DNA from: Ptychodera flava | Lineage: Eukaryota | Length of the DNA: 64,000 bases | Direction of reading: 5' to 3' | NCBI RefSeq assembly: GCF_041260155.1 | Contig: NW_027248355.1 | Coordinates: 2,452,078 to 2,516,077 of the forward strand | Shown here: piece by piece, positions 14,992 through 63,806 of the stretch | How the letters are laid out: every line of letters starts with the position of its first letter | Position numbering within the stretch: position 1 is the first letter of the stretch | Notes under the pieces: generated by a model | Seen by the model: only the letters and a program-made list of their open reading frames with translations | What the model was told of the DNA's origin: nothing | Databases searched by the model: none | Translations under genes and position numbers: made by a program

Positions 14992-15345
14992 ATGAGTACA
15001 ACATCACCAAATCTTGGACTCGGTTTGACTTCAACGCTGAGTACCAAAAAATCACCAAGTATAGCCTCAGCCTCTGGTTCGAGGTTAACATCTTCCCCGT
15101 TACTGACCTCAACTCTACTGCGCTCCAAACAACCAGCGGTGAAAAAATCAAAGAAAGCTACCCACAATACATTGCCAACTGCAGCCAGGACAGACAGGGT
15201 ATATGCTGATTTTGGCATCCGGGAGTATGATTTCAAACTTGAGGATGGTGATCCTGAAGTCACTATTCCTGATTTTCTGGCACCGGATTTGGATGTGACA
15301 GTTCAGAAATCTGTAAAGCCAGTGAAAAAGATCAACGTCTTAAAG
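14992..15345 (+). CDS. TEP1: TEP1 ortholog, candidate first coding exon. ATG at 14992; peptide MSTTSPNLGLG...VKPVKKINVLK; donor GT at 15346
   Basis: 118-codon open frame ending at a GTTAGT donor in phase 0. The phase matches the next exon (18154, phase 0), which carries clear TEP1 homology. The N-terminal region is poorly conserved, so the start codon itself is uncertain. Confidence 0.55.
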
Positions 15346-15957
15346 GTTAGTGCTTTCCTGGGTACTGTGTTATTAAGGTAGAACACGCCTCAGGGACAGA
15401 TATTCAGACTCTGAAACGTTTACAATTCTATCAAATGATTGTCATATCTATTCATGTGTGTATTCAAATTTCCAACTGACAGGCGAAGTGCGTGAACCAT
15501 GTGCATTGCGATGTGCAGACAACGACATTGCTTTGCCCGTCACTTGGTAACGACTCTGTCACGGGTCACTTGTCTTGATCACGTGATTGATATTGAAGTA
15601 TGGTTGACAGCCAGAGACTTTAATGACTGTCTTAGGCATTGTACAAACTTACAATAATGGCAGGTATGAGAAAAGTGATATTTTTAGGTTTTAACGACAT
15701 TGACATTGATGAATCAATATGTGTCACAGGTTTTGATAGAATATTAACAACATTGTAATCACCACCTGTTGCACAAGGTCACGTGTAATACTTCTTTTGA
15801 TGAAAGGTATTGCTAATCTGTTCACCCCCAAGCGATTAATAAACAGGTCCACATGCACCATTGATAAGAATAGGTTTGGAGCAAACCATTGTGGTCGAAG
15901 GGTAAACATTCTGAGAGAATCACAATATACATTTGTAGGACATGTAATGCCTCTTTG

Positions 15958-16582
15958 GTTTTAATGAGAGCTAAAGTCAATTTTTGTCACTTTAATAAAA
16001 TATACTCCAGTCAATTTTTTCCCAGTATTTGCCAAACTTTTAATGCACAACTGTAGCCAATAAAATGTGGTGTCTATTTAATCCAAAATTGTCAAATAGA
16101 GAAAATTTCATAAAAATTGATAAAATGTTGCACTGAAAATTTGGGGGGAAAAAATTAAAGCGCGCAAGGGTTAACCAGCTTTAACTGATGGTGACTTGAC
16201 AGGATAAGGGTGTATATGTATATATGGATTCTACTTGGAGTTAGCAGTATGAGTTCCAAACATTAGTCTTTCAGTAGGAACAAAGGAGTCATATTAACCC
16301 TTTGAGTGCCAAGGTCTATTTTTGTCCTCTTTAGAAAATAAACCCCAACCAATTTTTCTCAGATTTTTGCCAAAATTTTGAGAAAAAACAGTAGCAAATG
16401 AAATGTGATGTCCATATGGTCCAAAATTATCAAAAAATTACAGACAAATTCATAGAAATATGTAAAATTTTGCACTAAAATTTTGGCGGGAGAAAAACAA
16501 AAACAGAAAAATTTGTAAAAATTGGTAAAATCTGGCACTAAAATTTTGGCGGGAAAAATTACAGCACTCAAAGTGTTAATGG
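15958..16582. mobile_element. Two MITE family B copies in the TEP1 intron (15958-16183 and 16297-16582)
   Basis: Shared internal sequence …aaattttggtgggaaaaattacagcactcaaagggttaa. Confidence 0.75.
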
Positions 16583-18153
16583 TACACTGTACTTTACTAT
16601 ACATAGTAACATGTTGTGGAACTGCATGTATTGTACAACAGATGTATGGTTTATATCTGCATGTAATTGCCTTTAAACCAGATTTTAGAGATCTACTGAA
16701 AACATTAAAACATGCGCTAGCTAATACTTATACCATAGGCATATGTTCAGTCTTTCAGCCTGTGGTTGAACCATATTTACTTCAAAGGCCAGTGCCACAT
16801 TGTTCTTTACTACAATCCAAATTCCATATGGCAGGACATTGAGTCACCAGGAATTGTCCCAACGTGACATCAAATATGTGGAAATTTTGGCGACCAAAAC
16901 AACCAAAAGCAGGGTGATTTAAGATGTTCAGAATGTAGGCTGTATCATTTACAATACGCGCTGTGTGAATATGGTTCCAGTGAATCTACAATGAACATGT
17001 ATGGTTGTGTGTTTTTCAAATCCTGTTAGCACCCTTCATGTACAAGTACATATGTACCGGTATGCCATACCAATGATATTTCATGTAGTAGAAATATTTT
17101 TTATCTGTCACTCGGCCATATTTTTGTAAATATTCAGGAATGTTTTTTTGACAGAAAGGAGTAAGTCATAAATAAATAGTGTTTCTTATTTGCCCTTAGG
17201 GCACTATGTCTGCCATCTGTCACTCAATGACAACTTCGTCAGACATTTTACAGTAAATACGATAACAAACGGTTCACAATTGATTTATAATGAACTACCA
17301 TAAAATCATCAATTTATCACATGGAATTACATGTATATTGACGTATTTCGTGTAAGTCCACAAATATGTGAAAATAAATTCACATGAAATTAGTTTTGCG
17401 CTAAACCGCAGCAAGTGGGTAGGGGTTGCAGTGTCTACAACTGAAGCAGGCACACAACCATGCTCTGTAAAACAACTTTTTCAGCTGGCATCCTTTTTCA
17501 GCTAATTTAAGAAAGTCGGTTGATTCGCTGATTTAAGATGCCGCTAATATTCAGGCATGCCCTAAATTTTCAATGGTTGGACATCCTTTTAGCTACATCA
17601 AAACGTAGCTGATTGTAATAAAAATCCAAAAACGGTAACAGTATGTGATCAATAGATAGACATTTTGAATTTCTGATTGTAAACTGATCTATTGTTTAGA
17701 AAGACATGAAAATATCACTCGTTAATTTTTTTACTGGTAACAGTGTAGGCACTTGGTGTAACACAAACGGGATAAAATAAAAATGTTTTTTTCTCTTGTT
17801 AGTGACACAGGAAAACAGTAAATCTTTTTTGACCTTTGACTTAGCCAAACCAACCACGAACATAAATATCCATGAAAGTGTGTGGCAGAGCTGATATACG
17901 AACTCAAATCCATGGATTGCAAAGTATAATGACTTTTTTGGAAAATCACTGATAAAATGTTGGCCAGGAGATAAAAATGTCAATAACACAGCTTAACTGT
18001 ATACGCATTTACGGTATACTGGGAACACTTTGCTTGTTAATTTACACGCTTTTAGATGATAAGAATGAACTTCATTAAGTCCTTCATGGTATGTATGCAT
18101 GTGTTTTGGAAAATTTGTTTTTAATTGCCATTGCAAATTTTTTTTCTCTGCAG

Positions 18154-18288
18154 ACGTCTTTCATAAATGGTGTGAGTGCGTCGTTGCTGGGCAGTCCAGA
18201 TTTCCATGAAAGCAGTGACGCAACAAGACGACGTTTGATGGTGTTGGCTGACCAAGTCATTGCATACGACCCAGAATTCATTCTGAAA
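18154..18288 (+). CDS. TEP1: TEP1 exon (TROVE domain start): TSFINGVSASLLGSPDFHESSDATRRRLMVLADQVIAYDPEFILK
   Basis: Acceptor ttttttctctgcag and donor GTGAGT. From memory, the motif 'EPEFILK' matches human TEP1 ('LALLEPEFILKASLYARQQ'). Phase 0 at both ends. Confidence 0.8.
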
Positions 18289-18589
18289 GTGAGTGTTCAC
18301 ATACTCGGGTACTTCTTACTCCAAATTGTGCATCACCTGTAAGCTTTCTTAATGATTTCATGATTATATTTATTTCTTTGAGAATTTTCTCAATCACCTC
18401 AGTGCTTTTCCCAAAGCAAATAAAGCAAAGTGGTCATATTGTTTACTATGGTAAAATAATAACCAGATATGAACTGAATATGCTCACGTGTTTTACAACA
18501 GGTTCATTAATAGTAGTACGCTTCACAGAACAATGAGATATATGTTATCACTACCGGTATATGTAGCAGGTTTTTTTAAACTTCGCACA

Positions 18590-20150
18590 GTACTCTCAGA
18601 GTTTAATCACTAATTACAAAACTTTATTTAATATGCAAATGAGCTGTCAATTAACTTGACACTGCTCAATGCTTTATGGGACAATTAGATATCCATCAGA
18701 TCAACATTTGTAGCACGTTTTATTTAATTTAATGCTGTAATTTTAGAGTAATGTCACTTATTACAAAGTTCATTAAATACGCAAATAAACCCCACATTAA
18801 CTTGACACTGTTCAATGATTCATAGCACAATTAAATATTTATCAAATCAATATCTGTAGCATGGTTCACCAAATTTTAGTGCCGAAATTTCAGAGTTATA
18901 TACCTAATTACAAAGTTTATTAATATGAATGCAAATGAACCCTTAATAACTTTATACTACTAAATGCTTTACAACACAGTTAGATATCTGTCGTATCAGT
19001 ATGTGCAGCAGTGTTCATCACATTTGATGCAGTTATTTCAGAGTTATATGACTAATTATAAGACTTCATGGAATATGCAAATGAGCTAATTATTAACTTG
19101 ACACTGCTCAATGCTTCTCAGTACAATTGGATATTTATCAGATCAACATCTGTAGCAAGTTTCATCAAATTTAATGCTTTAATTTTGGAGTAATATCACT
19201 AATTACAAAGTTTATTAAATATGCAAATGAACCCTTAATTAACTTCACACAAACTAAATGGTCTAAACCACAGTTAGATATCATTCAGATCAGTATCTGC
19301 AGCAGATTTCATCACATTTGGTGCAGTTATTTTGGAGTTATATCACTAATTACTAAACTTCATAAAATATGCAAATGACCTATTTGTTAACTTGACACTG
19401 CCAAATGCTTCTCAGTACAATTAGATATTTATCAAAACAATATCTGTACCCAGTTTCACTGACTTGGGTGCTGTAATTTCAGAGTTATATACCTAATTAC
19501 AAAGTTCATTAAATATGCAAATGAACCCTTAATTAACTTCACACTACTAAATGCTTTATACCACAGTTAGATATCTGTCGGATCAGTATCTGCAGCAGAT
19601 TTCATCACATTTGGTGCAGTTATTTTGGAGTTATATGACTAATTACAAAACTTCATAAAATATGCAAATGATCTATTTATTAACTTGACACTGCCCAATG
19701 CTTCTCAGTACAATTAGATATTTATCAAAACAATATTTGTACCCAGTTTCACTGACTTTGGTGCTGTAATTTCAGAGTTATATACCTAAGTACAAAGTTC
19801 ATTAAATATGCAAATGAACCCTTAATTAATTTCACACTACTAAATGCTTTACACTACAGTTAGATATCAGTCGGATCAGTATTTGCAGCAGATTTCATCA
19901 CATTTGGTGAAGTTATATCGGAGTTATATGACTAATTACAAACCTTCATAAAATATGCAAATGAGCTATTTATTAACTTTACACTGACTAATGCTTCTAA
20001 GTATAATTAGATATATATCAGATCAATATTTGTTGCAAGTATCATCAAGTTTGGTGCAGGAATTTCAGAGTTATCTCACAAATACCAAAAGTTCATTAAA
20101 TATGCAAATGAGAAGATAATTGACATGACACTCACAGTATCATCATAATG
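18590..20150. repeat. Satellite array with a ~293-bp higher-order unit (two ~147-bp subunit variants), about 5 higher-order copies
   Basis: The marker 'atgcaaatgaaccc' recurs at 18929, 19221, 19514 and 19808, spacing about 293 bp. The alternate subunit 'atgcaaatgagct' sits in between. Confidence 0.85.
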
Positions 20151-24215: not shown

Positions 24216-24277
24216 ACTCTTTGAGTGCCACAGTCAATTTTTGTTGCCTCTATAAAATAAACTCCAGTCAATTTTTT

Positions 24278-24950
24278 TCATGTTAGTCCCCACAGACATC
24301 GTCCGGGGGGACTTATAGGTTTGGTCATGTCCGTGCGTCCGTCCGTGCACGCCCATATCTCAGAGATGCCTTGAGCGATTTCATTCAAACTTGGTACAAG
24401 GATTACTTCATATGTCATACAGATGCACATCGATTTGTTTCGTGATACGATCCAATATGGCTGCCAGGCGGCCATTTTATTACGATTTTTTCATATTCAG
24501 AGCAATAACTCAGGCATGTTTCAACTGATTTTATTCAAAGTTGATACAAGGACATTGACCAATGTCATAGATATGCACTCTAATTTTTTTGGTGATACGA
24601 TCAAATATGGCCGCCGTGCGGCCATTTTGTTACGATTTTTTCATGTACAGAGCCATAACTCAGGCATATCTCAACCGATTTTATTCAAACTTGGTACAAG
24701 GACATTGACCTATGTCATACATATGCACGTCAATTTGTTTTGTGATACGATCCAATATGGCCGCCAGGCGGCCATTTTGTTACGAATTTTTTCATGTACA
24801 GAGCCATAACTCAGGCATATCTCAACCGATTTTATTCAAAGTTGGTACAAGGACATTGACCTATGTCATACACATGCACATCGATTTGTTTTGTAATATG
24901 ATCCAATATGGCCGCTGTGTGGCCATTTTATTACCTTCTCGTGTCTATTT
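24278..24950 (+). mobile_element. Composite element copy 1: conserved head (ttagtccccacagacatcgtccggggggacttataggtttggtcatgtccgtgcgt(ccgt)n…cagagatgc) followed by a 150-bp satellite array (~3.4 units, 24440-24945); no tail found
   Basis: The head is near-identical to the heads at 39466 and 27583. The satellite unit is the same as at 39600-41335 and 30425-30775. Confidence 0.7.
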
Positions 24951-27582: not shown

Positions 27583-30500
27583 CCCACGGATGAAGTCCAG
27601 TGAGCTTATAGATTGGGTCATGTCCGTCTGTTCGTCCATCCGTGAGTCCATCCGTTCACGCAGATATCTCGGATATTTTGACAAAATGTCATGTGACCTT
27701 GATGACCTTTGATCTCAAATATACATATTTGTCCATAACTCAGTAACCACAAGTGCTACAGCCTTCATATATGGTATGATGGAACACCTTATGACGCCAC
27801 ATATTGTATCTCATTAATTATGCGCATATCTAATTTTGAGCGAGCCAATAGAGCTAGAGGTCTGATTTTTGGTATATAGGGATAACTTAGCAATACAATT
27901 TTTTTGACAAAATGTCACGTGACCTCGGTGACCTTTGACCTCAAATATACATATTTGTCCATAACTCAGTAACCACAAGTGCTACAGCCTTCATGTATGG
28001 TATGATGGGACAGCTTATGACGCCACATATTGTACCTCATTAATTATGCACATATCTAATTTTGAGCGAGCCAATAGAGCTAGAGGTCTGATTTTTGGTA
28101 TATAGGGATAACTTAGCAATACAATTTTTTTGACAAAATGTCACGTGACCTCGGTGACCTTTGACCTCAAATATACATATTTGTCCATAACTCAGTAACC
28201 ACAAGTGCTACAGCCTTCATGTATGGTATGATGGGACACTTATGACGCCACATATTGTACCTCATTAATTATGCACATATCTAATTTTGAGCGAGCCAAT
28301 ATTTGAGCGAGCAATAGAGCTAGAGGTCTGATTTTTGGTATATAGGGATAACTTAGCAATACAATTTTTTGACAAAATGTCACGTGACCTCGGTGACCTT
28401 TGACCTCAAATATACATATTTGTCCATAACTCAGTAACCACAAGTGCTACAGCCTTCATGTATGGTATGATGCGACACCTTATGACGCCACATATTGTAC
28501 CTCATTAATTATGCACATATCTAATTTTGAGCGAGCCAATAGAGCTAGAGGTCTGATTTTTGGTATATGGGGATAACTTAGCAGTAGAATTTTTTTGACA
28601 AAATGTTACGTGACCTTGGTGACCTTTGACCTCAAATATACATATTTGTCCATAACTCAGTAACCACAAGTGCTACAGCCTTCATGTATGGTATGATGGG
28701 ACACCTTATGATGCCACATATTGTACCTTATTAATTATGCACATATCTAATTTTGAGCGAGCCAATAGAGCTAGAGGTCTGATTTTTGTAATATAGGGAT
28801 AACTTAGCAATACAATTTTTTTGACAAAATGTCACGTGACCTTGGTGACCTTTGACCTCAAATATACATATTTGTCCATAACTCAGTAACCACAAGTGCT
28901 ACACCCTTCATGTATGGTATGATGGGACAGCTTATGACGCCACATATTGTACCTCATTAATTATGCACATATCAAATTTTGAGCGAGCCAATAGAGCTAG
29001 AGGTCTGATTTTTGGTATATAGGGATAACTTAGCAATACAATTTTTTTGACAAAATGTCACGTGACCTCGGTGACCTTTGACCTCAAATATACATATTTG
29101 TCCATAACTCAGTAACCACAAGTGCTACAGCCTTCATGTATGGTATGATGGGACACCTTATGACGCCACATATTGTACCTTATTAATTATGCACATATCT
29201 AATTTTGAGCGAGCCAATAGAGCTAGAGGTCTGATTTTTGGTATATAGGGATAACTTAGCAATACAATTTTTTTGACAAAATGTCACGTGACCTCGGTGA
29301 CCTTTGACCTCAAATATACATATTTGTCCATAACTCAGTAGCCACAAGTGCTACACCCTTCATGTATGGTATGATGGGACACCTTATGACGCCACATATT
29401 GTACCTCATTAATTATGCACATATCTAATTTTGAGCGAGCCAATAGAGCTAGAGGTCTGATTTTTGGTATATAGGGATAACTTAGCAATACAATTTTTTT
29501 GACAAAATGTCACGTGACCTCGGTGACCTTTGACCTCAAATATACATATTTATCCATAACTCAGTAACCACAAGTGCTACAGCCTTCATGTATGGTATGA
29601 TGGGACACCTTATGACGCCACATATTGTACCTCATTAATTATGCACATATCTAATTTTGAGCGAGCCAATAGAGCTAGAGGTCTGATTTTTGGTATATGG
29701 GGATAACTTAGCAGTAGAATTTTTTTGACAAAATGTTACGTGACCTTGGTGACCTTTGACCTCAAATATACATATTTGTCCATAACTCAGTAACACAAGT
29801 GCTACAGCCTTCATGTATGGTATGATGGGACACCTTATGACGCCACATATTGTACCTTATTAATTATGCACATATCTAATTTTGAGCGAGCCAATAGAGC
29901 TAGAGGTCTGATTTTTGGTATATAGGGATAACTTAGCAATACAATTTTTTTGACAAAATGTCACGTGACCTCGGTGACCTTTGACCTCAAATATACATAT
30001 TTGTCCATAACTCAGTAACCACAAGTGCTACACCCTTCATGTATGGTATGATGGGACAGCTTATGACGCCACATATTGTACCTCATTAATTATGCACATA
30101 TCTAATTTTGAGCGAGCCAATAGAGCTAGAGGTCTGATTTTTGGTATATAGGGATAACTTAGCAAAATGTCACGTGACCTCGGTGACCTTTGACCTCAAA
30201 TATACATACACTAAATAGTCCAGGATGGGAGCTACAGTGTCATTGACGCTATTTTTTGATTGATTGATGTATTTAATCATCTTTTGGGTTCTTTGGGTCC
30301 ATATCCCACCTCATGCCCCTACATCATCAACTATTTACCAACAACTCCATGCCAACAACCAATTACCTGACCTGGCCACACATTAGAGAAGGTACAGCGT
30401 CATTGACGGTATTTTTTACGTTTTTTTATGTCCAGAACCATAACTCAGACATGTATCAAGCGATTTTATTGAAAGTAGGTACAAGGAGATTGACCAATGT

Positions 30501-30885
30501 CATACATATGCACGTAAATTTGTTCTGGTACGATCCAATATGGCTGCTGTGCGGCCATTTTGTTGTTAATTTTTCATGTACAAAGCCATAACTCAGGCAT
30601 ATCTCAACCGATTTTAATCAAAGTTGGTACAAGGACATTGACGTATGTCATACATATGCACATTGATTTGTTTTGTGATACGAACCAATATGGCCACCAT
30701 GTGGCCATTTTATTACGATTTTTTCATGTCCTGAACTATAACTCAGACATGTATCAAGCGAATTTATTCAAAAGTATTTTTATCACAGACCTAATTAATG
30801 AAGAGGACTCTATCCTCTCTGAGGACATGTAATCAAAGGACCCATTAACAAGTGGGGACTGTGTCATCAACGATGACTTGTTTTT
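27583..30885 (+). mobile_element. Composite element copy 2 (~3.3 kb): head (27583-27665), 226-bp satellite ×~11 (27665-30200), unique spacer, 150-bp satellite ×~2.3 (30425-30775), conserved tail …gtggggactgtgtcatcaacgatgacttgtt (30850-30885)
   Basis: Head motif 'ttagtccccacgga' and tail motif 'gtggggact' are reverse complements. The tail is identical at 41860-41895 and 57480-57515. The satellite period was measured from recurring 'atgtcacgtgacc' markers (27687, 27912, 28138). Confidence 0.7.
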
Positions 30886-32008: not shown

Positions 32009-32170
32009 GTCGCTCTTTACACAAGATGCGAGTTGAATATCCGTACCACAGCTGACTTTCTGCTGGCCCTAGCATCTCATCGACATCCTTGCAGACCGTT
32101 CCTCAAGAAGTATTTCAATGATGCAGTCAGACTGCCTTCTGATTGGATAGATGTAGCTGAAGTTTACCTT
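32009..32170 (+). CDS. TEP1: TEP1 exon (TROVE): VALYTRCELNIRTTADFLLALASHRHPCRPFLKKYFNDAVRLPSDWIDVAEVYL
   Basis: Acceptor ttgttcag and donor GTAAGT. Strongly resembles human TEP1 'ASLYARQQLNVRNVANNILAIAAFLPACRPHLRRYFCAIVQLPSDWIQVAELYQ' (from memory). Confidence 0.85.
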
Positions 32171-32543: not shown

Positions 32544-32640
32544 ACTTTTCATGACAAATCAATCAATTTTGGTGCACTGCCTTCTGCCTTGCGGAAAGCA
32601 ATGACTGCAAAGTTTCCAAGTTTTGATGCCTATCAGCTGG
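32544..32640 (+). CDS. TEP1: TEP1 exon (TROVE): TFHDKSINFGALPSALRKAMTAKFPSFDAYQLG
   Basis: Acceptor cttattcttgcag and donor GTGAGT. Matches human 'LPACLRTAMTDKFAQFDEYQLA'. Ends in phase 1, and the next exon starts in phase 1. Confidence 0.8.
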
Positions 32641-33105: not shown

Positions 33106-33224
33106 CGAAATATAACAAAGACAAAAAGAAGAAAAAAGATGGTGATGCCAAGAAAAAGAAAAGCAAAGAAGACAAGGAGTCGTCTGATGAAGAAGTAGAA
33201 AATGGTGGAAATGTATCAAGACAG
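33106..33224 (+). CDS. TEP1: TEP1 exon: (A)KYNKDKKKKKDGDAKKKKSKEDKESSDEEVENGGNVSRQ (basic/acidic linker)
   Basis: Acceptor ttgtttgttttgcag and donor GTGAGG. Human TEP1 has 'AKYNPRKHRAKRHPRRPP' at the equivalent place. Phase is consistent. Confidence 0.75.
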
Positions 33225-34112
33225 GTGAGGTCATGTCCTTGCATAGAAGGTCAAAATTTGCATAAAGTAAGTAGTATTGCATTGCAATAGGCAATACTTT
33301 CCTACCCATCATGCATTGCATCAGAAGCCATATTTTATTACCCATTATGCATTGCACATACAGCTACACTTTCATAACACAATGTGTTGTACCTTTACTA
33401 ACCAGCATGCATTGCACCAGTTGCCGTATTGTCTTACCCATCATACATTCTAGCAATAGTCAAACTTTTACTGTTTGCAAAATTACTATCAGTGATAGAT
33501 GGAAATAGTGAAAGAACTTGTTCATTCTTTTGTGAAAACGTTTAAAACATTTTAATTGCAATGGGAGTTTTCCTGATACTCAAAAACTTTGCACATTTAA
33601 GTCATATACTACATAGGCACAGCTTTTGTCAAATTGCAGAGTTGTTAAGTTTAGGTCCAGTCTCATTTGGTCTTGCTTGTTCAATACATGGCAGGTCACC
33701 TCAAACCCCATATGTTTAACCAGATGCTTGTTTTCAAGAGAAAACATGGCAGTGATATCACCGGATGTTCAGGGTACCATATGCTGAACTCTGTCATGGA
33801 GTCTGTCTATTACCTCCATGTCTCTACTCTGTTGTCTTCATTCTCACTCTACGAGATTGAGGTTTCACAGAGGGTTCATTTTGTGAATTAACCCCCCTTA
33901 GCTTCAGTTTTCAAATGACGCCGACGCTGACGCCGTAAGCCTCTTCTAAAACCCGGCTACACATTATATTCCTTTTTGCTGGTAAAGCCTACTTAGAAGT
34001 GGTCCAGACAATACAAGACCTGCAGGCACCGATCTCTAAAGCAAGAGAAAAGCTTTCAATTTAAGTCTAGAGTGGTACATGTAAGTGGGATCAGTGACCT
34101 TTGATTTAACCC

Positions 34113-34253: not shown

Positions 34254-34384
34254 GTGTCCTATCTTAGTGAACAGAGCGAGAACGAAGAAGAACTGGTCCG
34301 ACTGACATTTACACTGAAACAATTGATCAGAAAATTACACATCACAGTGCCGGTGGAAAATGTCATGTGTCTCATTGGAAAAAG
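34254..34384 (+). CDS. TEP1: TEP1 exon (TROVE): VSYLSEQSENEEELVRLTFTLKQLIRKLHITVPVENVMCLIGK(R)
   Basis: Acceptor ttttggtatttag and donor GTAAAG. Matches human 'FTLKKLVQRLHIHKPAQHVQALLGYR'. Confidence 0.75.
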
Positions 34385-35148: not shown

Positions 35149-35306
35149 ATATCCTGATGATGACGATGCTTTTCGTAAGAGTGGATTACCGGGAGAGTTC
35201 AATCCAGAGAGAGCCGGAAAGAGAATGAAACTCCCCACACCAGAAACCTGGGAAACGCAAGTCTCCATGAAAGGAAACAAAGCTTCGACCTGGGAAGACT
35301 TGATTG
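35149..35306 (+). CDS. TEP1: TEP1 exon (TROVE): (R)YPDDDDAFRKSGLPGEFNPERAGKRMKLPTPETWETQVSMKGNKASTWEDLI(G)
   Basis: Acceptor tttgatgtcag and donor GTAAGA. Matches human 'YPSNLQLFSRSRLPGPWDSSRAGKRMKLSRPETWERELSLRGNKASVWEELI'. Confidence 0.85.
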
Positions 35307-38524: not shown

Positions 38525-38526
<2 letters not shown>

Positions 38527-38647: not shown

Positions 38648-38848
38648 ATCACAACAAACTACCATTCATGGCTATGCTGAGAAACATTCGTAACATGCTA
38701 CAAGCCGGCATCAGCGACAAGCACCACACCTGGGTTCTGAAGAAACTGACCAATGAGAGATCAGTTGTCAACAGCAGACAGTTTCCTTTTAGGTTCTTCT
38801 CTGCATATGAAGTATTGGTTGGATTGGAAAAAGCTCTGGACAAACAAG
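38648..38848 (+). CDS. TEP1: TEP1 exon (TROVE): DHNKLPFMAMLRNIRNMLQAGISDKHHTWVLKKLTNERSVVNSRQFPFRFFSAYEVLVGLEKALDKQ
   Basis: Acceptor ttgatttcag and donor GTGAGG. Matches human 'KLPFMAMLRNLCNLLRVGISSRHHELILQRLQHAKSVIHSRQFPFRFLNAHDAI'. Confidence 0.85.
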
Positions 38849-51915: not shown

Positions 51916-52248
51916 TTAAGGCTGAATAAATATGTGAAAACTGAATAAAAGATTTGAATTTTTTTCAGGTGCTTGCCTTTGACAAAGAAACGACTCACTT
52001 AAAAGAAAAATGAAAGAAAGAAAGAATGAAACATAAGAGATGGATTGATGGAAATAGACATATCATAAATGGATGAATGAATGCATGAATGAAAGGTTGG
52101 AGGGAGCGTTAGTTTCTTTTATTGTCGGCAAATGTTTTGTAGTGCGTGTTTTGGTATGAGTTCAGGGATTTTATGTTTTTTAGAGAAAAGCTATATATCA
52201 CTGCAAGTGGATCATAACTGTGTAAATCTTGCTTGTTTCTTTGAAAAG

Positions 52249-52491
52249 ATCACTTGAAATCTGTCTGAGTGAAGTTGCCAGATGCGATTTCTTCATCGGC
52301 ATCCTCGGTGAGAGGTACGGATGGATTCCAGAACGTTACGTGGCACCGGACACGGATGACTTTGACTGGCTGAAGGACTATCCGTCTGGTCGATCCATCA
52401 CAGAACTTGAGATGCAACATGCCGGGCTGTGTGATCCTGTGAACGCTGCAGACAAGGCATTTTTTTATCTGAGAGATGATGAGTTTACATG
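52249..52491 (+). CDS. TEP1: TEP1 exon (DUF4062-like region continued): SLEICLSEVARCDFFIGILGERYGWIPERYVAPDTDDFDWLKDYPSGRSITELEMQHAGL...FYLRDDEFT
   Basis: Donor GTAAAT. Matches human '[54 protein letters not shown]...IYFRDSSF'. The acceptor AG at 52247-52248 fits the phase. Confidence 0.8.
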
Positions 52492-52640
52492 GTAAATGGC
52501 TTCATTTGTTTTATTTTCCTGTTGTCCATGTCTTTCTTAACATGTGTGGAAAGTTTGATGAGATAGAATTGTTGAAATGAATAGTAAAATGATGAAAAAC
52601 ATAAACAGAAGCCAGGTTGACATTAAGGGTGGGTGGGGGG

Positions 52641-52684
<44 letters not shown>

Positions 52685-52801
52685 TTGATATTTTGTATGC
52701 AGAGAGAGAGAGAGTTCATATGCGTCAGGTATACTCACAAACTTAAACATAGCAGAGACTGACAGACAGATCATAGGAAAGAGAGAGAATGTCTGATGAA
52801 C

Positions 52802-52851
<50 letters not shown>

Positions 52852-53042
52852 GTGTTAATTTATAGAGGAGTGTTTTTGCTTTTCAGGCAGTCAAGATGAT
52901 TTATTATTTGTTTAAGAAATACACCATTATGATTATAGTATAATCTGTCAAAGATTTAGGAACATGTGATTTAGTTACAAGTCTGTGTTTGTTATATTAC
53001 TAGTAGTGATCTCAATGTATTATTGATAACTCTGTTTATTAG

Positions 53043-53156
53043 GTCAGTACCAGCAAAACATAGAGCAGATCTGCTGACCGAATCAAGTTCTTCCAGAGAC
53101 AAGATCAACAACTTGAAAGAGAGATTACGAAAGAGTGGTTTGGAAGTATTTGATGG
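53043..53156 (+). CDS. TEP1: TEP1 exon: (W)SVPAKHRADLLTESSSSRDKINNLKERLRKSGLEVFDG
   Basis: Acceptor ctctgtttattag and donor GTAAGT. Matches human '[39 protein letters not shown]'. Confidence 0.75.
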
Positions 53157-53219
53157 GTAAGTTTGGATTGCAGTTGTTGTTGGATGGAGATTTGAGTTTA
53201 TCACAGAAAGGCTAAATAG

Positions 53220-54840
53220 TATTTAGAAATGATGCAATATTCACCATATGAATACAATGCCCCATGTGTACATCATATTCAAAATTAATATTGATACTTG
53301 TAAGTTACAATATGAAAATTGTATTTACAATTAATTTGGATACAGTGTTTCATGTGTGCACTGTATTCACAATAAATATGGCTACTGTGTATTGTATGTA
53401 GAATGTATTTACAATTAATATGGAATACAGTGTACTGAAAAACACTTTGAATTAGCTGCTTGCTGATATGGATACAATGTACTTTAGGTACATTGTATTC
53501 AAATTTACATAGAGATTTATGTACATTCTATTCATAACTATTATGGATCCAGACTGTACTTTATGTACTGTGTACTCATAATTGATATGGATTTATGTAC
53601 ATTTTATTCAGAATTAATATGGATACAGACTGTACTTTATGTACATTTTATTCATAATTAATATGGATTCATGTATATTTTATTCAGAATTAATATGGAT
53701 ACAGGCTGTACTTTATGTACATTGTATTCATAATTAATATGGATTCATGTACATTTTATTCAGAATTAATATGGATACAGACTGTACTTTATGTACATTG
53801 TATTCATAATTAATATGGATTCATGTACATTTATTCAGAATTAATATGGATACAGGCTGTACTTTATGTACATTGTATTCATAATTAATATGGATTCATG
53901 TACATTTTATTCAGAATTAATATGAATACAGACTGTACTTTATGTACATTGTATTCATAATTAATATGGATTCATGTACATTTTATTCAGAATTAATATG
54001 AATACAGACTGTACTTTATGTACATGTATTCATAATTAATATGGATTCATGTACATTTTATTCAGAATTAATATGAATACAGACTGTACTTTATGTACAT
54101 TGTATTCATAATTAATATGGATTCATGTACATTTTATTCAGAATTAATATGGATACAGGCTGTACTTTATGTACATTGTATTCATAATTAATATGGATTC
54201 ATGTACATTTTATTCAGAATTAATATGGATACAGACTGTACTTTATGTACATGTATTCATAATTAATATGGATTCATGTACATTTATTCAGAATTAATAT
54301 GAATACAGACTGTACTTTATGTACATTGTATTCATAATTAATATGGATTTATGTACATTTTGTTCAAAATTAATATGGATACAGGCTGTACTTTATGTAA
54401 ATTGTATTCATAATTAATATGGATTCATGTATATTTTATTCAGAATTAATATGGATACAGGCTGTACTTTATGTAAAATGTATTCATAATTAATATGGAT
54501 TCATGTATATTTTATTCAGAATTAATATGGATACAGGCTGTACTTTATGAAATTGTATTCATAATTAATATGGATTCATGTACATTTTATTCAGAATTAA
54601 TATGAATACAGACTGTACTTTATGTACATTGTATTCAAATTTACATAGAGATTTATGTACATTCTATTCATAACTATTATGGATCCAGACTGTACTTTAT
54701 GTACTGTGTACTCATAATTGATATGGATTTATGTACATTTTATTCAGAATTAATATGGATACAGACTGTACTTTATGTACATTTTATTCATAATTAATAT
54801 GGATTCATGTATATTTTATTGATTATTATTATTAATATGG
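53220..54840. repeat. 76-bp satellite (two sub-repeats of 44 and 32 bp, both starting taatatgga…), ~18 units plus degenerate flanks
   Basis: Direct reading; the period was measured from recurring 'taatatggatacag' markers. Confidence 0.85.
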
Positions 54841-55283
54841 ATATAGTGTACGTACAGTGTATTGACAGTACAGATACGATGCACAGACAAATAATTAGAA
54901 AAAGACATTGAAAGAGACACATTATATTCAATATAAGTGCACTCACAAAAACAGTCCTTTTTTGTCACTTTTTGTACAATGCAGAAGATTTACGCTGCAG
55001 CAAAATATTGTTCAAATTAAGGGACACTCTATGCAAAGTTGTGGAAACATACCATAATATCTACAAATGATATGCAGAGTATACATTATGGATTTGCAAT
55101 AGGTGTGTACAGGAGGGGGTTCACGTCAAAGTTTACAAAGAATCTACAAATGAGATACAAAGCAGACACTATGATGTCATAATGTATACACCATGTATAC
55201 ATTAAATTGCAGCAAGCTGTAGCATACCCCATTTAACAGCAAAGAAGTACAAAGATAACTTCCTGTTTATTTTCCCTTTGCAG

Positions 55284-55407
55284 CTATCCCTGTGAATTTT
55301 CCGGAAAGATTGTGGATGGCGTACCTGTACTTGGTGGACTGGAACAGTTTGGAACCCGAGTTCTCAATAACCTGTGGAATGCCATTCTGAAGAAATACCC
55401 TGATGAG
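55284..55407 (+). CDS. TEP1: TEP1 exon: YPCEFSGKIVDGVPVLGGLEQFGTRVLNNLWNAILKKYPDE
   Basis: Acceptor tttccctttgcag and donor GTACGT. Matches human '[37 protein letters not shown]'. Confidence 0.85.
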
Positions 55408-56632
55408 GTACGTGTTGTGTGTGTGTGTGGCATATACGCAGAATTATACAGATTCAGTACCATTGCTGTACATGCAGTCTTTTGTATTCTGATATCGTTT
55501 ACCAGCTAGTTTATGTCCACTTACGGTATTAAGATACCTACCCAGTACAAGTTTCCTGTAAGTGAAAACATACAATACACTGACAAGACACTGGCATATT
55601 AGGTAGCTCTTTGTGGTGCAAGAAAATATGTTACCTGTACTGATTTTATTAATTATTTGTCAGTGCCATTGAATCTGTATTTTGAATACAATGTACATAC
55701 AGTACAATTTACATACTTTACATTGTATCCATTATGTCATACACTTTGTTCATCTTGTATCAGTTCTAAATACTTTGTAGCATTTCTTTGATAAACTGTC
55801 ACATCTCTATCTCCATAAGAGTGGCACAAAGAAATTTCATTTATATGCGCCTCAGGGATAGATATTCGGACTCTCAAATTGTCCTAAATGCTTTTTGGTC
55901 TACCACTTGTGGGGGCTCATTTAAAAGCTTGTGGAGTAAAAAAAAATTTCATTGTCCTAGTTTTTTTGAAATCGAAAATTGTATTTTTCTCCGTAGAGTA
56001 AAAACAGGGATGGCGGCCATTTTGAATTTCAAATATTCGCAAATCTTGGCTTTTTATTTTTTCTCTAGTACCAAAATTTGCACTGTGACGCCAGATTTTG
56101 ATTCTTGATAATGGTAAGAGAACGGTTGAGGAAAATTTGAGCAAAAGTTTTAGTCTTTCACTTTCAAAGTGCGGTACTTTTATGTAAAGCTGACTCAGAG
56201 AAGACTCTAAGAAACTGACTTAGAGGATTAAGAAATCTTTAACCCTTTCACCAAGATGGTTTTGCCCGAACCCATTGTTATCAATGGTGAATGTGGACCT
56301 GTTTACAGGGAATTGGGGGTGAACAGGTTAAAGTTGCAGGGTACACTGTCTAATACTACAAGTAGTGTAAGAACTACAACCATGGATATGTGAATGCTAC
56401 AAGTCAAATAATTATATTGTACCTTAGACTATGACTAGGTTAGATTCCTGTAAATCACTGTACTATATCAACAACATTCGACTGCCTCTACCATGTTCTG
56501 TTAAAACACATTCATTGACTTGATTTCTCACCAATACACTCTTAGCAAGCATAGCTTGATGATTCCAACTAAAAAACATATCAGCAACAGTAACAGATGA
56601 AACTGACTCAGTTATTATCTCATTCAATGCAG

Positions 56633-56815
56633 GAGGTGGTCGAAGATGAAATTTCCCATGAAGCCTTGCTCCATGAGGCCTGCCTTGAAAACTACCTGGA
56701 GACGTTTGTTGGCAGGAAGGCCATCTTGAAGCAATGCATGGAATCAATCCAGGCTTGCAAGCAGGGAATGCTTGTTATCCATGGGAAAGCAGGCTCTGGA
56801 AAATCGGCACTTATG
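56633..56815 (+). CDS. TEP1: TEP1 exon (NACHT N-terminus with Walker A): EVVEDEISHEALLHEACLENYLETFVGRKAILKQCMESIQACKQGMLVIHGKAGSGKSALM
   Basis: Acceptor cattcaatgcag and donor GTAGGT. Carries the P-loop motif GKAGSGKS, aligning with human 'GRLSLVTGQSGQGKTAFLASLVS'. Confidence 0.8.
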
Positions 56816-57392
56816 GTAGGTTAATGTTTGTAATGCATTATAACATCTTTTCCTTTTCATTCTTAGTTTAGCTACAATGATATAAACCATTACTAGGACT
56901 ACCAGGTGTGTCTGAAATCTGAAAAAAATTCATTGTTATAATTTAATAGTACTGTTGTATGATACACTTTTCAGTACAGTATGTGACGGTAAAACACTTA
57001 ATTAGAAATCACACAGTCACATGACATAAGTGACTGTACATTACTGCTAAGTTTTGTCATAAAAACTTGAGTGCAAGAGGTGTATGTCACTCAAAAAGTA
57101 CCCATAATAAACAAAAGTATTGCCAGGATCATTAATCTAGACTGTATGTTATATGTCATGTCTCAAGGCTAACCACAATGTAGGAATATTGTCAGCCATT
57201 CAGTCAGCCAAATACTCAAACTTTTAGCAAGTCTAAGCAACCATTAGTAAATTCATCAAAATGGGGCCTGGGGGAATTTATCGTAGAGTAACACTATAAT
57301 TACATGCAGACGTGTGAGGTATGCAGTATGTTGTTGATGACCAGTTTAATGTGTTATGCTCATGAAAATACACACTATGAAGGTTGTTTTTA

Positions 57393-57515
57393 GTCCCTGC
57401 TGACGCAGTCTGGTGGGGGGAAATCTACCAAGCTACCAAGCATGTAATTCAATCACCCTAATTCAGACACAATAATCCAGCGGGGACTGTGTTATCAACG
57501 ATGACTTGTTCGATT
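57393..57515 (+). mobile_element. Minimal (solo) version of the composite element: head ttagtccctgctgacgcagtctggtgggggg… and tail …gcggggactgtgttatcaacgatgacttgtt with no internal satellite
   Basis: Shares both the head and tail motifs of the satellite-carrying copies. Confidence 0.55.
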
Positions 57516-57869
57516 AAAATTGGATGGGCCTTTCCATCTAAAAAGACATTTCATAATGGAATTAATAGATTGTCTGAATGAATGGTGTCTCTTGTACATA
57601 AAACAAACAATGATACACTGTATAGTGCTATTAGTTGTAATCTTGAGGGTACTTATAATGCCCTTGTTTGCCAGTTTGATTGTCAAATTAAACGTGTAGT
57701 ACCAATTTCATATTTTTTTGTAACTGAAACCGGCAATCAGGTAGTGTAAGCCCTGTGTCAACATGTTCCTGTGTCATGTTCATATCTGTGTCATACCATC
57801 CTTGGTGGAGACCATCATTATACAATGAACTGTGGAGGACTGGAATCTCATTACTTGTAAAGATCCATT

Positions 57870-57906
<37 letters not shown>
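57870..57906. repeat. (AAT)n microsatellite
   Basis: Direct reading. Confidence 0.9.
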
Positions 57907-57908
<2 letters not shown>

Positions 57909-59184
57909 GGTTCTTATATAGCGCACACATCCACAAGTTCATGAGCTCAGGGTGCTTTACAATTATTATTACCACTGGTCACTGGACCTACGGTGGTATG
58001 ATGCCACTCAACTCACAGGGGAGCAAACAACAGCTCACATGTGCAGCCAATAACGCACACATTACAACCACTGTCCTACCAGGTACCCATCACTCCTGGG
58101 TGGGGAGAAGCAATGAGGAATAAAGTGCCTTGCTCAAGGACACAACACCATAGCCATGCCGGAGCTCAAACTCACTATCCTGTGATCATGTGTCCACTGC
58201 TCGAGCAATTGGGCCATGATGCCTCCTTGTACTGAAAAAAGTAATTATTAAATATCATTGTGTGGAGATATTATGGTCTGGTGAGCATGGGGTTAGAAAA
58301 TTAAAAAAGGCTCATACACGAGAGACTGTCGACCATAAATATTCAATCAACATTGGATCAATATTTACAAAATTGTGACACACTTACATGTATTCTGGAT
58401 GACTACAATATTTGCATTATCCTCAACGATGGATGGATGGCTTTCATGCAGGGAAAATTACCAGCAATTATGTCGGATATTACACAATGCCCATTACAAC
58501 AATGCTGCATGTTAGAACCACATGTTACTGAGCAAATATCCAAGGTTTTGAATGTAAAAAATAGATATAGGCAGCATGCAGGTACAGCTAGTTGTAATGT
58601 ACAATGTACATACGTCTCGGGGATGGTGTCTGTAGGGAGAAGTGGTAGGGGTATGCAGCCACACATAAAACCCCATATTGCATTTTAGACCAAAAATCTT
58701 GGTTTTCTTCAGACTCAATATGAGACCTATATAACCTTTGACCCTCGTAAAAACCTATTGCACAGAAAAATTCACAAAGCATTGTGGGGCAAAAGTAAAA
58801 CTTACCTCTGGCAGGATGGCACAAGCAAAGCAAATCTGATGTCCCAGGCTAAGTCATGATTTAATTTGCTGAAACGGAATAAACTAAAAAATTTTTGTAT
58901 TAAAACATTTTAAAAATATGGGGAAAATCTAAAAATTTAGTGCAAGAACATACATGTATGTTTCATAACCCATTTTATACCTTGGTCGCACTAAATGTAT
59001 ACCACCATAATTTAGACCACATAGTGACCCCCCTCCCCCAGTGACACATACATGTGTATGTACTGTATTGGCAAGTAATGGAATTCAAGTGACCCCCCAG
59101 GTGTATGTCATGTGATAAAAACACTGAAGTAAATTTTCAATATTTAACAATATGGTGCGCTTTTTGTCAAATTTATTGATAACG

Positions 59185-62100
59185 TTTACTCCCTACCGTT
59201 AAAGTGTGTTTAGGAACACGCATTTAATGTTTATAAGATTGTACAAGTGCTTTTCTTTTGTATCTCAGCGGAGCAGTTGAGGCAGAAAACAAAGACCTTG
59301 GTGACATGTAAAACCAACCCCCAAACGAGCATGATACCAGTTTACAACCAAATGCATTTTAGTGTATCAATAAACTGATAAGAACAACAGTTATGCTGTT
59401 CAGACCGGCCAATTTTTTGTCGGTGAAGCACCGGTGCTGGGCCTGGGCCGACGTAAAATAACCAATGTGGACAAGCTGCGCTGGCCTTGGGCTGACATAG
59501 TTTGGTTCTGGTAAGAAGCGGGTTCAGGGCCGATACAAAATATGGGCTGACGCAAATTGGCTTGTTACGTCGACCCCAGTCCCAGTTGACACCCTCAGCA
59601 AGTTTACACATGTAGGCCCACATCATTGTCATCTGTGTGGAGATTGTTATAGCATGGTTGAAGTTTGCCTGTAGGTGTATAATATAAGAGGAAATTTCAC
59701 TGATAAAAAATATATTTGAAGGTAATTACAATGAGTTTTAATCAGGCAATCAAGTATAGGTCATATGAAAAAATGAAAAAGTAGGAATTAAATTTAATCC
59801 ACGGACAGCTGACGCACTCACCGCGGATTTCATCAGGAGACAAAGTCCTGTATATCTGCATCATCATGACATAATCCGCTTGTGACTGTGTAAGTTTTGT
59901 AAAGACATTTCACGACTGATTTGTTTCCTAATGAACAGTTGCCATGGTGTGCTGCTAGTTTTTGCCTCAGTCGCTCCAGAGGTGTGACCATGTTTTCGCC
60001 AAGCAACAGTGCAAGCGGGGTATACAGTGATTGTGCATGAGAGAATGAGCCAGTTAATGTATGCCAAATGTACAATTTTGCTTTCATGTATTTAAAGTGG
60101 TATTTCTCTTGAAAAGCCACCGGTCGTTAAAACCCCCTACAGTGGGTTTCAAACCAGTGCCACAACTCTGTGTGTCTGAGAGTTTTAGCATCAGCGAAAG
60201 TTTTTAGAGTACCATGTGTTGCCTCAAAATCCTTTGGTGAAAGATCTTTTTCCCACTCAGGACTGAAAACTCGGAGCAGTCTGCCTGTTAACCCTTTGAG
60301 CACCAACCAAAGTCAATTTTTGTTGCCTTTATACAGAATATATCTCAGTCAAATTTTTTCAGATTTTTGCCAAAATTTTGATAAAGAAATGTAGCCAAGG
60401 AAATGTGATTTCCATTTGGTCCAAAATTATCAAAACAAATACAGAAAAATTCTGAAAATTTGGTAAAATGTTGCACTAAAATTTTGGTGGGAAAAATTAC
60501 ACCCCTGAAAGTGTTAACCTATGCCAAGGGAATGTACTTTTTAGAGAATAGTCTTTTTTTGTCCTGCACCTAGAGCTGCGATTTAATATTAAGCGCATTA
60601 TAAATATTCTTTATTATTATTATTACTAATACCTTTCAGCTGTAACTGTTACTAAATACAGCTACCGGTACACTGTACTGAGATCGACTGTTCAGCGATT
60701 GGATCAAGACAGAATTGCCCCGTGCTGGTTTACTGTAACTAATCCACTAGTCGGTTACTTTGAAATGTGTGGTGATACCCAAGCTAATCATTTATAAGTG
60801 TACATACAATGTGTCTGTCTCACAAACAGAGTTGGGGAACTAAAATGAAAATTAATGCATAGTTATTTGTGTTTGAACTCACATTCATGAACTTTTGGCT
60901 TGTACCATATTTACACTTCTTGGACTCATGTAGTTGGCCTAAAACACCTTGACTGAACATGTACAATACCAGAATCACATAACTTGTAGCTTTTGCCGCG
61001 CAGTTGCGGTAACTGCTGGTGCGGTAGCTTCGCGGTAACACCTCTTTTGTCAGCTGTTGATTTTCTTTGTTCTCGTTTGCGGTAACTAGTCAGTGTCAAT
61101 GAGGTAGCGCTGTGACCGACATTTTGGTTAAAATCTCACTCCGAAAGTCACCTCAAATGACTACATATATACACAGGCTAAAACTCAAATATGAAAAGTG
61201 AAAAGTGTGCCTACAGCTGTTATTACTGAATATTGATAAAAACATATTTTCAATATTATACATTGTGGCTGTAATTGTGAAGTTTTTCTGTTGCCTCTTG
61301 CTAAGTACAGAATTTTCAAGTACGGCATTTTCACAGAGATATGATGACTGTAATTTACTTACATTTACTCACTACCGATAAAGTGTGTTTAGGAACACAC
61401 ATTTAATGTTTATTAGATTGTACAAGTGCTTTTCTTTTGTATCTCACCGGAGCAGTTGAGGCAGAAAACAAAGACCTCGGTGACATGTAAAACCAACCCC
61501 CAAACGAGCATAATACCAGTTTACAACCAAATGCATTTTAGTGTATCGATAAACTGATAAGAAGAACAGTTATGCTGTTCAGACCGGCCAATTTTTTGTC
61601 GGTGAAGCACCGGTGCTGGGCCTGGGCCGACGTAAAATAACCAATGTGGACAAGCTGCGCTGGCCTTGGGCTGACATAGTTTGGTTCTGGTAAGAAGCGG
61701 GTTCAGGGCCGATACAAAATATGGGCTGACGCAAATTGGCTTGTTACGTCGACCCCAGTCCCAGTTGACACCCTCAGCAAGTTTACACATGTAGGCCCAC
61801 ATCATCGTCATCTGTGTGGAGATTGTTATAGCTTGGTTGAAGTTTGCCTGTAGGTGTATAATATAAGAGGAAATTTCACTGATAAAAAATATATTTGAAG
61901 GTAATTACAATGAGTTTTTAATCATGCAATCAAGTATAGGTCATATGAAAAAATGAAAAAGTAGGAATTAAATTTAATCCACGGACACCTGACGCACTCA
62001 CTGCGGATTTCATCAGGAGACAAAGTCCTGTATATCTGCATCATCATGACATAATCCGCTTGTGACTGTATAAGTTTTGTAAAGACATTTCACGACTGAT

Positions 62101-63520
62101 TTGTTTCCAAATGAACAGTTGCCGTGGTGTGCTGCTAGTTTTTGCCTCAGTCGCTCCAGAGGTGTGACCATGTTTTCGCCAAGCAACAGTGCAAGCGGGG
62201 TATACAGTGATTGTGCATGAGAGAATGAGTCAGCTAATGTATGCCAAATGTACAATTTTGCTTTCATGTATTTAAAGTGGTATTTCTCCTGAAAAGCCAC
62301 CGGTCGTTAAAACCCCCTACAGTGGGTTTCAAACCAGTGCCACAACTCTGTGTGTCTGAGAGTTTTAGCATCAGCGAAAGTTTTTAGAGTACCATGTGTT
62401 GCCTCAAAATCCTTTGGTGAAAGATCTTTTTCCACTCAGGACTGAAACTCGGAATTGTCTGCCTGTTAACCCTTTGAGCACCAACCAAAGTCAATTTTTG
62501 TTGCCTTTATACAGAATATACCTCAGTCAAATTTTTTCAAATTTTTGCCAAAATTTTGATAGAGAAATGTAGCCAAGGAAATGTGATTTCCATTTGGTCC
62601 AAAATTATCAAAACAAATACAGAAAAATTCTTAAAATTTGGTAAAATGTTGCACTAAAATTTTGGTGGGAAATTACAGCCCTGAAAGTGTTAAGCTATGC
62701 CAACCTACTTTTTAGAGAATAGTTTTTTTTTGTCCTGCACCCAGAGCTGCGATTTAATATAAAGCGCATTATAAATGTTCTTTATTATTATTACTAATAC
62801 CTTTCAGCTGTAACTGTTACTAAATACAGCTACACTGTACTGAGATCGACTGTTCAGCGATTGGATCAAGACAGAGTTGCCCCGTGCTGGTTTACTGTAA
62901 CTAATCCACTAGTCAGTTACTTTGAAATGTGTGGTGATACCCAAGCTAATCATTTATAAAAGTACATACAATGTGTCTGTCTCACAAACAGAGTTGGGGA
63001 ACTGAAATGAAAATTGATGCATAGTTATTTGTGTTTGAACTCACATTCATGAACTTTTGGCTTGTACCATATTTACACTTCTTGGACTCATGTAGTTGGC
63101 CTAAAACACCTTGACTGAACATGTACAATACCAGAATCACATAACTTGTAGCTTTTGCCGCGCAGTTGCGGTAACTGCTGGTGCGGTAGCTTCGCGGTAA
63201 CACCTCTTTTGTCAGCTGTTGATTTTCTTTGTTCTCGTTTGCGGTAACTAGTCAGTGTCAATGAGGTAGCGCTGTGACCGACATTTTGGTTAAAATCTCA
63301 CTCCGAAAGTCACCTCAAATGACTACATATATACACAGGCTAAAACTCAAATATGAAAAGTGAAAAGTGTGCCTACAGCTGTTATTACTGAATATTGATA
63401 AAAACATATTTTCAATATTATACATTGTGGCTGTAATTGTGAAGTTTTTCTGTTGCCTCTTGCTAAGTACAGAATTTTCAAGTACGGCATTTTCACAGAG
63501 ATATGATGACTGTAAGTGTC
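59185..63520. repeat. Tandem segmental duplication, 2 × ~2.18 kb (copy 1 59185-61364, copy 2 61365-63520), ~97-98% identical, each containing a family-B MITE
   Basis: Identical ORF pairs are offset by 2179 bp (59342..59632 versus 61521..61811) and 2162 bp (60820..61041 versus 62982..63203). The alignment continues along the whole unit. Confidence 0.9.
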
Positions 63521-63636
63521 CCCAGCATGTAGAACACCTTGTAACAGGCTTCTTGCTGTTGGTATTTCTGCTTTGAAGCCATGAGTCACAAATCCTCCAA
63601 AGGCTATTCATAAAATTTATTCACTTTTATTTTCAG

Positions 63637-63806
63637 GCTGCTTTGGCCAGGCAATGTGCAGAGAAGTTTTCCGACTCACACCATGTGATGGCGCACTTCA
63701 TAGGTGCCGTGCCTGGTTCTACCAACGTTGTGGCTATGTTTAGAAGGTTATGCCATGAACTGCAACGCAGATTCAATTTATCAGTGGAGATACCAAATGA
63801 TTTCAA
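63637..63806 (+). CDS. TEP1: TEP1 exon (NACHT continued): AALARQCAEKFSDSHHVMAHFIGAVPGSTNVVAMFRRLCHELQRRFNLSVEIPNDFK
   Basis: Acceptor cacttttattttcag and donor GTAAGC. Matches human 'ALQAPDGAKVASLVFFHFSGARPDQGLALTLLRRLCTYLRGQL'. The gene continues beyond the window. Confidence 0.8.

Follow-up and report, generated by a model that had tools for sequence, protein, structure and literature searches.

Exon structure and domain order of a probable TEP1 orthologue in Ptychodera flava

Exon structure of the locus

The window analysed here is a 64,000-nucleotide stretch of Ptychodera flava DNA (RefSeq assembly GCF_041260155.1, contig NW_027248355.1, positions 2,452,078 to 2,516,077 of the forward strand), with the fragmented open reading frame (ORF) pattern and the G+C content of roughly 30–45% of a eukaryotic genome. 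Its plus strand carries a 21-exon gene model extending from 14992 to 63806. We conclude with high confidence that it represents the 5′ part, with 21 exons and at least 1,116 codons, of an invertebrate orthologue of TEP1 (telomerase protein component 1, a vault protein), and that this orthologue is intact and rich in introns. The spliced coding sequence of 3,350 nt translates into 1,116 codons with no stop and with an unbroken codon phase, and its product matches TEP1 proteins far beyond chance, giving single high-scoring segment pairs (HSPs) with E = 0.

The exon model was built independently of the exon list in an earlier note on this DNA, which had proposed a fully phase-consistent, 21-exon TEP1 ortholog. 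The starting protein was a rough concatenation of coding-looking open frames, which was scanned with Pfam. Anchors were obtained by tblastn of six TEP1 relatives (amphioxus, bivalve, sea slug, shark and bonobo among the species) against the window, with 7–15 collinear plus-strand HSPs per protein in the order TROVE to P-loop. Between neighbouring anchors, all GT/GC...AG pairs that keep both frames open were listed, and the resulting junction peptides were scored against five references. Four small exons, which lie in linkers of low conservation, were located by relaxed tblastn with reference segments, and their boundaries were set by reading the DNA. This procedure recovered the exon count and end points of the earlier model together with its two very large introns, put there at 13.7 and 6.8 kb and measured here at 13,720 bp (intron 2) and 6,821 bp (intron 20). 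In a spliced alignment, one of the checks that the note had suggested, TEP1 proteins from amphioxus, bivalve, sea slug, shark and bonobo are collinear over all exons.

All 20 introns are of the GT..AG type. The 21 donors are all GT, mostly GTAAGT or GTGAGT, and the 20 acceptors are all AG, most of them after pyrimidine-rich tracts, so that the AG/GT boundaries with matching phases described in the note hold for every intron. At 13 of the 20 junctions there is no nearby gap in the model or in any covering reference. Wrong exon boundaries were considered as the cause of the gaps at the others and rejected for the six that were inspected, where the gaps fall within variable linkers or reflect an insertion that one reference alone carries (e.g., the shark at junction 10); at the seventh, junction 18, one of 10 references has a gap. 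Exon 21 breaks off after the second base of a codon, where a GTAAGC donor follows (63806/63807) shortly before the end of the window at 64000. Because this last exon ends at a splice donor, the gene runs on past the window.

Domain architecture of the spliced product

The rough, unspliced concatenation already matched TROVE in Pfam (280 bits, in two stretches), as well as DUF5920, DUF4062 (74 bits) and several P-loop STAND models. After splicing, the TROVE match (PF05731) is continuous and scores 337 bits (E 2.6e-100), covering profile positions 36–442 of 442 and residues 134–542 of the spliced translation. It is followed by the vWA-like DUF5920 (PF19334; 47.2 bits against a cut-off of 27 bits; profile positions 22–194 of 203, residues 576–758) and by DUF4062 (70 bits against a cut-off of 24.7 bits), which is in the same reading frame as TROVE and lies between the vWA-like domain and NACHT. 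The hidden Markov model search envisaged in the earlier note thus returns TROVE, DUF5920 and DUF4062 together with a P-loop of STAND/NACHT type, and it gives no rival family for the spliced translation.

Exon 1 as modelled (14992..15345) runs from an ATG to a phase-0 donor, GTTAGT, and encodes a low-complexity N-terminal region. The TROVE domain occupies 18199–44143 on the plus strand, in exons 2–10. It starts in exon 2 (18154..18288; phase 0 to 0) and continues beyond the largest intron in exon 3 (32009..32170; 0 to 0) and exon 4 (32544..32640; 0 to 1). Exon 5 (33106..33224; 1 to 0) encodes a Lys/acidic-rich linker within TROVE, with an intron position as in the bivalve Solemya velum; an alternative donor is possible 12 nt upstream (GTATCA). 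Exon 6 (34254..34384; 0 to 2) and exon 7 (35149..35306; 2 to 1) lead to the TROVE core in exon 8 (38648..38848; 1 to 1), which includes LPFMAMLRNIRN...FPFRFFSAYE and matches the solved 'TROVE domain-containing protein' chains 9l5y and 9kop weakly (E 1e-5). Exon 9 (42024..42189; 1 to 2) is an RG-rich, RGG-box-like insert inside the TROVE region, GGGRGRGRGRGRGRGRDRGRGRG, and TROVE ends in exon 10 (44041..44224; 2 to 0). A similar RG run is present in the amphioxus and Solemya TEP1s, which also have a Ser/Leu-rich low-complexity N-terminus in common with this gene; it is not found in two other relatives (P0004 and P0007) or in primates. The RG-rich exon may be an additional RNA-binding element in some invertebrate TEP1s.

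The vWA-like DUF5920 (45015–49354, plus strand, exons 11–15) begins in exon 11 (44997..45152; 0 to 0), whose acceptor tract is weak and yet belongs to the sole in-frame AG. It extends through exon 12 (47050..47124; 0 to 0), exon 13 (47871..48019; 0 to 2) and exon 14 (48511..48664; 2 to 0) to exon 15 (49322..49419; 0 to 2), which forms the linker from the vWA-like to the TIR-like domain and has its donor at the same position and phase as in Solemya.

DUF4062 (49787–55398, plus strand, exons 16–19) is made up of exon 16 (49786..49962; first part, FISSTFRDM...), exon 17 (52249..52491), exon 18 (53043..53156; 2 to 2) and exon 19 (55284..55407; 2 to 0), where the domain ends. The earlier note had spoken of a 'DUF4062-like' block. 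DUF4062 it is by the Pfam score, and a function can now be attached to the name: two 2026 preprints show the domain, renamed NIR or 'TIR-like', to be an NADase (10.64898/2026.05.01.722283; 10.64898/2026.09.04.749371). In human TEP1 the activity depends on E1008, is present inside vaults and rises with concentration (10.64898/2026.05.01.722283; 10.64898/2026.09.04.749371), and TEP1 alone showed it among the human proteins tested (10.64898/2026.05.01.722283). In the PDB, the crystal structure of this TIR-like domain from human TEP1 is chain 11gz_A, which aligns to residues 781–996 of our model with E 1.2e-61. Residues were mapped on the assumption that chain and human numbering differ by a constant 893, which places all four named residues on R, R, R and E of the chain. 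The catalytic glutamate is kept as E893 (human E1008; 52409–52411, exon 17), and two active-site arginines are kept as R793 (human R908; 49823–49825, exon 16) and R861 (human R976; 52313–52315, exon 17).

The STAND P-loop region (56699–63771, plus strand) lies in exon 20 (56633..56815; 0 to 0), where the NTPase starts and which contains the Walker A motif GKAGSGKS at 56783–56806, and in exon 21 (63637..63806; 0 to 2), which continues the NACHT domain. In a six-frame motif search, this P-loop and the other sequence block quoted in the note, which begins at 49805, are both present in one plus-strand frame.

Relatives and shared intron positions

With the rough protein as query, 111 database relatives were found at E ≤ 1e-10; all those that have names are TEP1 or TROVE proteins. 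The best are the 'Telomerase protein component 1' of Branchiostoma belcheri and proteins of Solemya velum and Elysia marginata; vertebrates are represented too, by sharks, teleosts, reptiles and primates. By blastp, the amphioxus protein (P0001) is 53% identical in a single HSP that aligns model residues 78–994 with reference residues 261–1236, and the Solemya protein (P0002) is 50% identical in a single HSP over residues 51–976; both are similar end to end and equally distant from the query gene. A further relative, P0004, is 55% identical in a single HSP that passes through the P-loop exons to residue 1116. The bonobo (P0026) and gorilla (P0028) TEP1s are each 34% identical over 1,027 aligned positions; together with the match to the human TIR-like chain, these figures put numbers on the similarity to human TEP1 named in the earlier note. 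Over the collection searched, identity to the closest sequence is only about 53–58%.

Intron positions were compared by mapping the annotated Solemya and amphioxus proteins back on their own genomic loci (L001 and L002, respectively) and projecting the introns onto the protein alignment; an intron was counted as the same when both the alignment column and the phase were identical. By this measure, 15 of the 20 introns are shared with Solemya TEP1, whose annotation ends before the last two introns of the model, and nine of the 20 with amphioxus TEP1. Introns that agree in both position and phase speak strongly for the exon boundaries and for orthology alike, and the assignment to TEP1 made in the note is borne out by these introns as well as by the names of the relatives.

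A different partition of the exons would be two adjacent genes, with a TROVE and vWA-like, 'p80-like' gene in exons 1–15 and a separate NIR-NACHT gene of the NWD type from exon 16 onwards. Each half has precedents: many of the relatives are TROVE-only proteins of 600–900 residues (e.g., the Saccostrea 'telomerase component p80-like, partial'), and animal NIR-NACHT proteins without TROVE exist (NWD1, NWD2 and NPHP3). At the junction itself, however, exons 15 and 16 meet in phase 2, the spliced peptide TTP-R-WRTAKV matches QTPRWRTARV of Solemya with the intron at the same position and phase, neither a stop nor a plausible new start lies between the two exons, and single HSPs of full-length TEP1s cross it. 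We therefore regard two genes as extremely unlikely.

The 5′ end of the gene

The phase consistency claimed in the note extends to all 21 exons and 20 junctions; what is doubtful is the start at 14992. Abutting exon 1 in the +1 frame is an open frame of 187 codons (14432..14992, plus strand; candidate ATGs at 14447 and 14531), the fourth-longest of the window, whose Ser/Thr/Leu/Lys-rich composition is like that of exon 1. Its TGA overlaps the ATG of the model (ATGA at 14992–14995), and the addition of one A to the A4 run at 14989–14992 joins the two frames. The modelled N-terminus has 156 residues before the conserved DPEF motif, the shortest of all, versus 219–338 in eight references. The homologous first exon is 702 nt long in Solemya and 900 nt in amphioxus, versus 354 nt here, with the same phase-0 intron next in both. 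A short intron joining the frames would need to be less than about 60 nt long, or else it would remove much of the upstream frame.

Exon 1 proper is homologous to the Solemya N-terminus (z 7.8 relative to shuffles). For the upstream frame, raw similarity to the reference N-termini is high in its own reading frame only, and the z scores against three reference N-termini are 0.9, 0.5 and 3.4, two of the three being no better than composition-matched shuffles. Since these controls show a mainly compositional signal, we do not claim homology for the upstream frame and argue instead from composition, position and exon size. On these grounds we lean, with modest confidence, towards a true N-terminus that starts at 14447 or 14531 and would be longer by about 154–182 residues, with the frame break being a homopolymer indel in the assembly or in the allele.

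Translation probably does not begin at the ATG at 14992. A model that is right as it stands, with the upstream frame as a chance frame, a long upstream ORF or a remnant, is nonetheless a possibility of some weight, if the less favoured one. It is self-consistent from 14992 onwards, the shuffle result agrees with it, and TEP1 N-termini vary widely in length. It would, however, leave this gene with the short N-terminus and short first exon described above, and it would be an unlikely coincidence for a frame of 187 codons with the same unusual composition to end exactly at the ATG. We consider it very improbable that the ATGA overlap is genuine and that a 182-codon upstream ORF (from the ATG at 14447) yields a protein of its own, with its translation coupled to that of TEP1 by termination-reinitiation or frameshifting; if true, this would split off a low-complexity N-terminal region that other animals have fused to TEP1.

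The frame break between upstream frame and exon 1, and introns heavily invaded by repeats, could also be taken as signs of a non-functional TEP1 pseudogene or a decaying duplicate. Decay would have to have spared 1,116 codons in 21 exons, which contain neither stop nor frameshift, every splice site, all being canonical, and the catalytic glutamate, two active-site arginines and Walker A motif, all of which are intact. The sole defect lies in a homopolymer run of a low-complexity, fast-evolving region, with an in-frame ATG directly after it. With the other 1,116 codons intact, a pseudogene is very unlikely, and an intact gene, probably with an incompletely joined first exon, is the reading that we retain.

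Introns, repeats and upstream sequence

The note had described the large introns as filled with satellites. Tandem arrays are indeed present in introns 2, 7, 8 and 18, where they cover 37%, 22%, 55% and 64% of the sequence, respectively; 13 of the 20 introns are free of them, and the 6.8 kb intron carries a duplication instead. Intron 2 contains a 147/293 bp array of 10 copies (18588–20111), 150 bp arrays at 24376–24934 and 30411–30772, and a 226 bp array of 11 copies with 95% identity (27676–30165). A 57 bp array of 12.8 copies in intron 7 (35357–36086) begins 51 nt past the exon 7 donor, and intron 18 has a 76 bp array of 18 copies (53466–54820). The array in intron 8 (39589–41320) is of the same 150 bp family as those in intron 2. 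This family has a palindromic core, ATGGCCGCCAGGCGGCCAT, and is thus represented by three arrays in two TEP1 introns; the long open frames within it (up to 219 codons) are repeat artefacts. In intron 20, which lacks a tandem array of satellite type, two head-to-tail copies of a 2.18 kb unit share ~97% identity (59182–63540); they seem to stem from a recent segmental tandem duplication and not from a satellite.

A dispersed repeat of ~300 bp, SINE- or MITE-like (short interspersed element or miniature inverted-repeat transposable element), occurs in at least 11 copies in both orientations and with 67–88% identity, in introns and upstream of the gene. Copies lie at 1062–1363, 1470–1804, 5976–6248, 15845–15910, 34105–34167, 34700–35100, 37397–37816, 39195–39439, 44649–44758, 45628–45953, 47383–47634 and 55850–56300. 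In ORF lists the repeat is recognised by recurring '...QNGRHPC...' or '...KMAAI...' peptides.

Upstream of the gene, ORFs of at least 50 codons on both strands of the first 14.4 kb gave no Pfam match, so no neighbouring gene was recognised, and 1–14400 appears to be intergenic or repeat sequence. It includes a 640 bp (TA)n tract at 4333–4972, and the segment 8001–10000 has an unusual GC skew of +0.17. No RNA gene, vault RNA included, was found in the 64 kb with Rfam at gathering thresholds or, for tRNA, with ARAGORN; the Rfam result for vault RNA says nothing either way on vault RNA binding or association with vaults.

Discussion

Taken from its N-terminus, the predicted protein would consist of a low-complexity region, a TROVE ring with an RG-rich insert, a vWA-like DUF5920, a DUF4062/NIR TIR-like NADase and a NACHT-type STAND P-loop, with the remainder of NACHT and the expected WD40 repeats encoded 3′ of the window. 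Its true exon 1 most likely takes in the abutting upstream open frame, split here by a 1-nt indel, and its introns are swollen by tandem satellites, the 2.18 kb duplication and the ~300 bp dispersed repeat. By analogy with human and mouse TEP1, the TROVE and vWA-like module may bind small structured RNAs such as vault RNA, in keeping with the role of TEP1 within vaults. The same analogy suggests that the TIR-like domain would be a competent NADase, whose activity would rise with oligomerisation driven by the adjacent NACHT NTPase.

Several points weigh against this reading or parts of it: (i) The evidence for the splice sites consists of homology and consensus. (ii) The NACHT model PF05729 scores 20.4 bits, under its cut-off of 26.7 bits. 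(iii) NACHT is only partly in the window, and the WD40 part lies outside it, unseen. (iv) The third active-site arginine, human R954, is replaced by lysine (K839), as it also is in amphioxus, P0004 and P0011. (v) At the 5′ end, the upstream frame fares poorly against composition-matched shuffles, and the frame break could mean a shorter N-terminus instead of an assembly error. Regarding NACHT, the low score arises because the window takes in just ~60 of the 167 profile positions. The related NPHP3_N model exceeds its cut-off (26.6 bits against 24.8), and exons 20–21 align with the NACHT region of P0004, P0007 and P0011. The label 'NACHT' thus rests on the P-loop exons and on the alignment to full-length TEP1s; of the domain named in the earlier note, the P-loop stands, and PF05729 itself stays below threshold.

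Human and other mammalian TEP1s have the same order of TROVE, vWA-like DUF5920, DUF4062/NIR TIR-like NADase and NACHT, of which the window shows the P-loop start, and the human catalytic glutamate and two of three active-site arginines are conserved in this gene. In contrast to the mammalian proteins, in which alone among the relatives the TEP1_N repeat (PF05386) occurs, neither the model nor the upstream frame matches that repeat; the RG-rich insert and Lys/acidic linker within TROVE and the lysine in place of human R954 are further differences. These differences are minor and lie in variable regions. Compared with amphioxus TEP1, the introns are far larger, with 48.8 kb for the part seen here versus 12.2 kb for the whole annotated amphioxus gene, and the lineage-specific intron satellites and the frame break at exon 1 set this gene apart from both the amphioxus and Solemya genes.

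More distant systems share single modules. Ro60 (TROVE2) and bacterial Rsr, of the TROVE plus vWA RNA-binding family, have the TROVE fold family in common with this gene. Ro60 proteins, ~540 residues long in humans, are without the TIR-like and NACHT modules present here, and no named Ro60 is among the relatives at E ≤ 1e-10. The DUF4062/NIR TIR-like NADase module with its catalytic glutamate adjoins a STAND NTPase in the animal NIR-NACHT proteins NWD1, NWD2, NPHP3 and TTC41, and likewise in defence effectors of the DUF4062/NIR type from bacteria (Swarozyc, Avs-NIR, Vulcan, Vesta and Evangelion). Unlike the gene described here, both groups are without TROVE, and the bacterial ones detect phage proteins and function in abortive infection.

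The gene looks intact and ordinary, a new sequence in a thoroughly known family; it holds nothing surprising to a specialist and opens no new question. The value of the analysis is mostly one of annotation, in that it provides a homology-validated TEP1 exon model for a protein whose closest match in the protein collection searched is at most about 58% identical. The analysis also places the glutamate of the TEP1 NADase and most of the active-site residues in an invertebrate, together with the domain order and most intron positions. As judged from sequence, this conservation fits an ancient, retained enzymatic role for TEP1.

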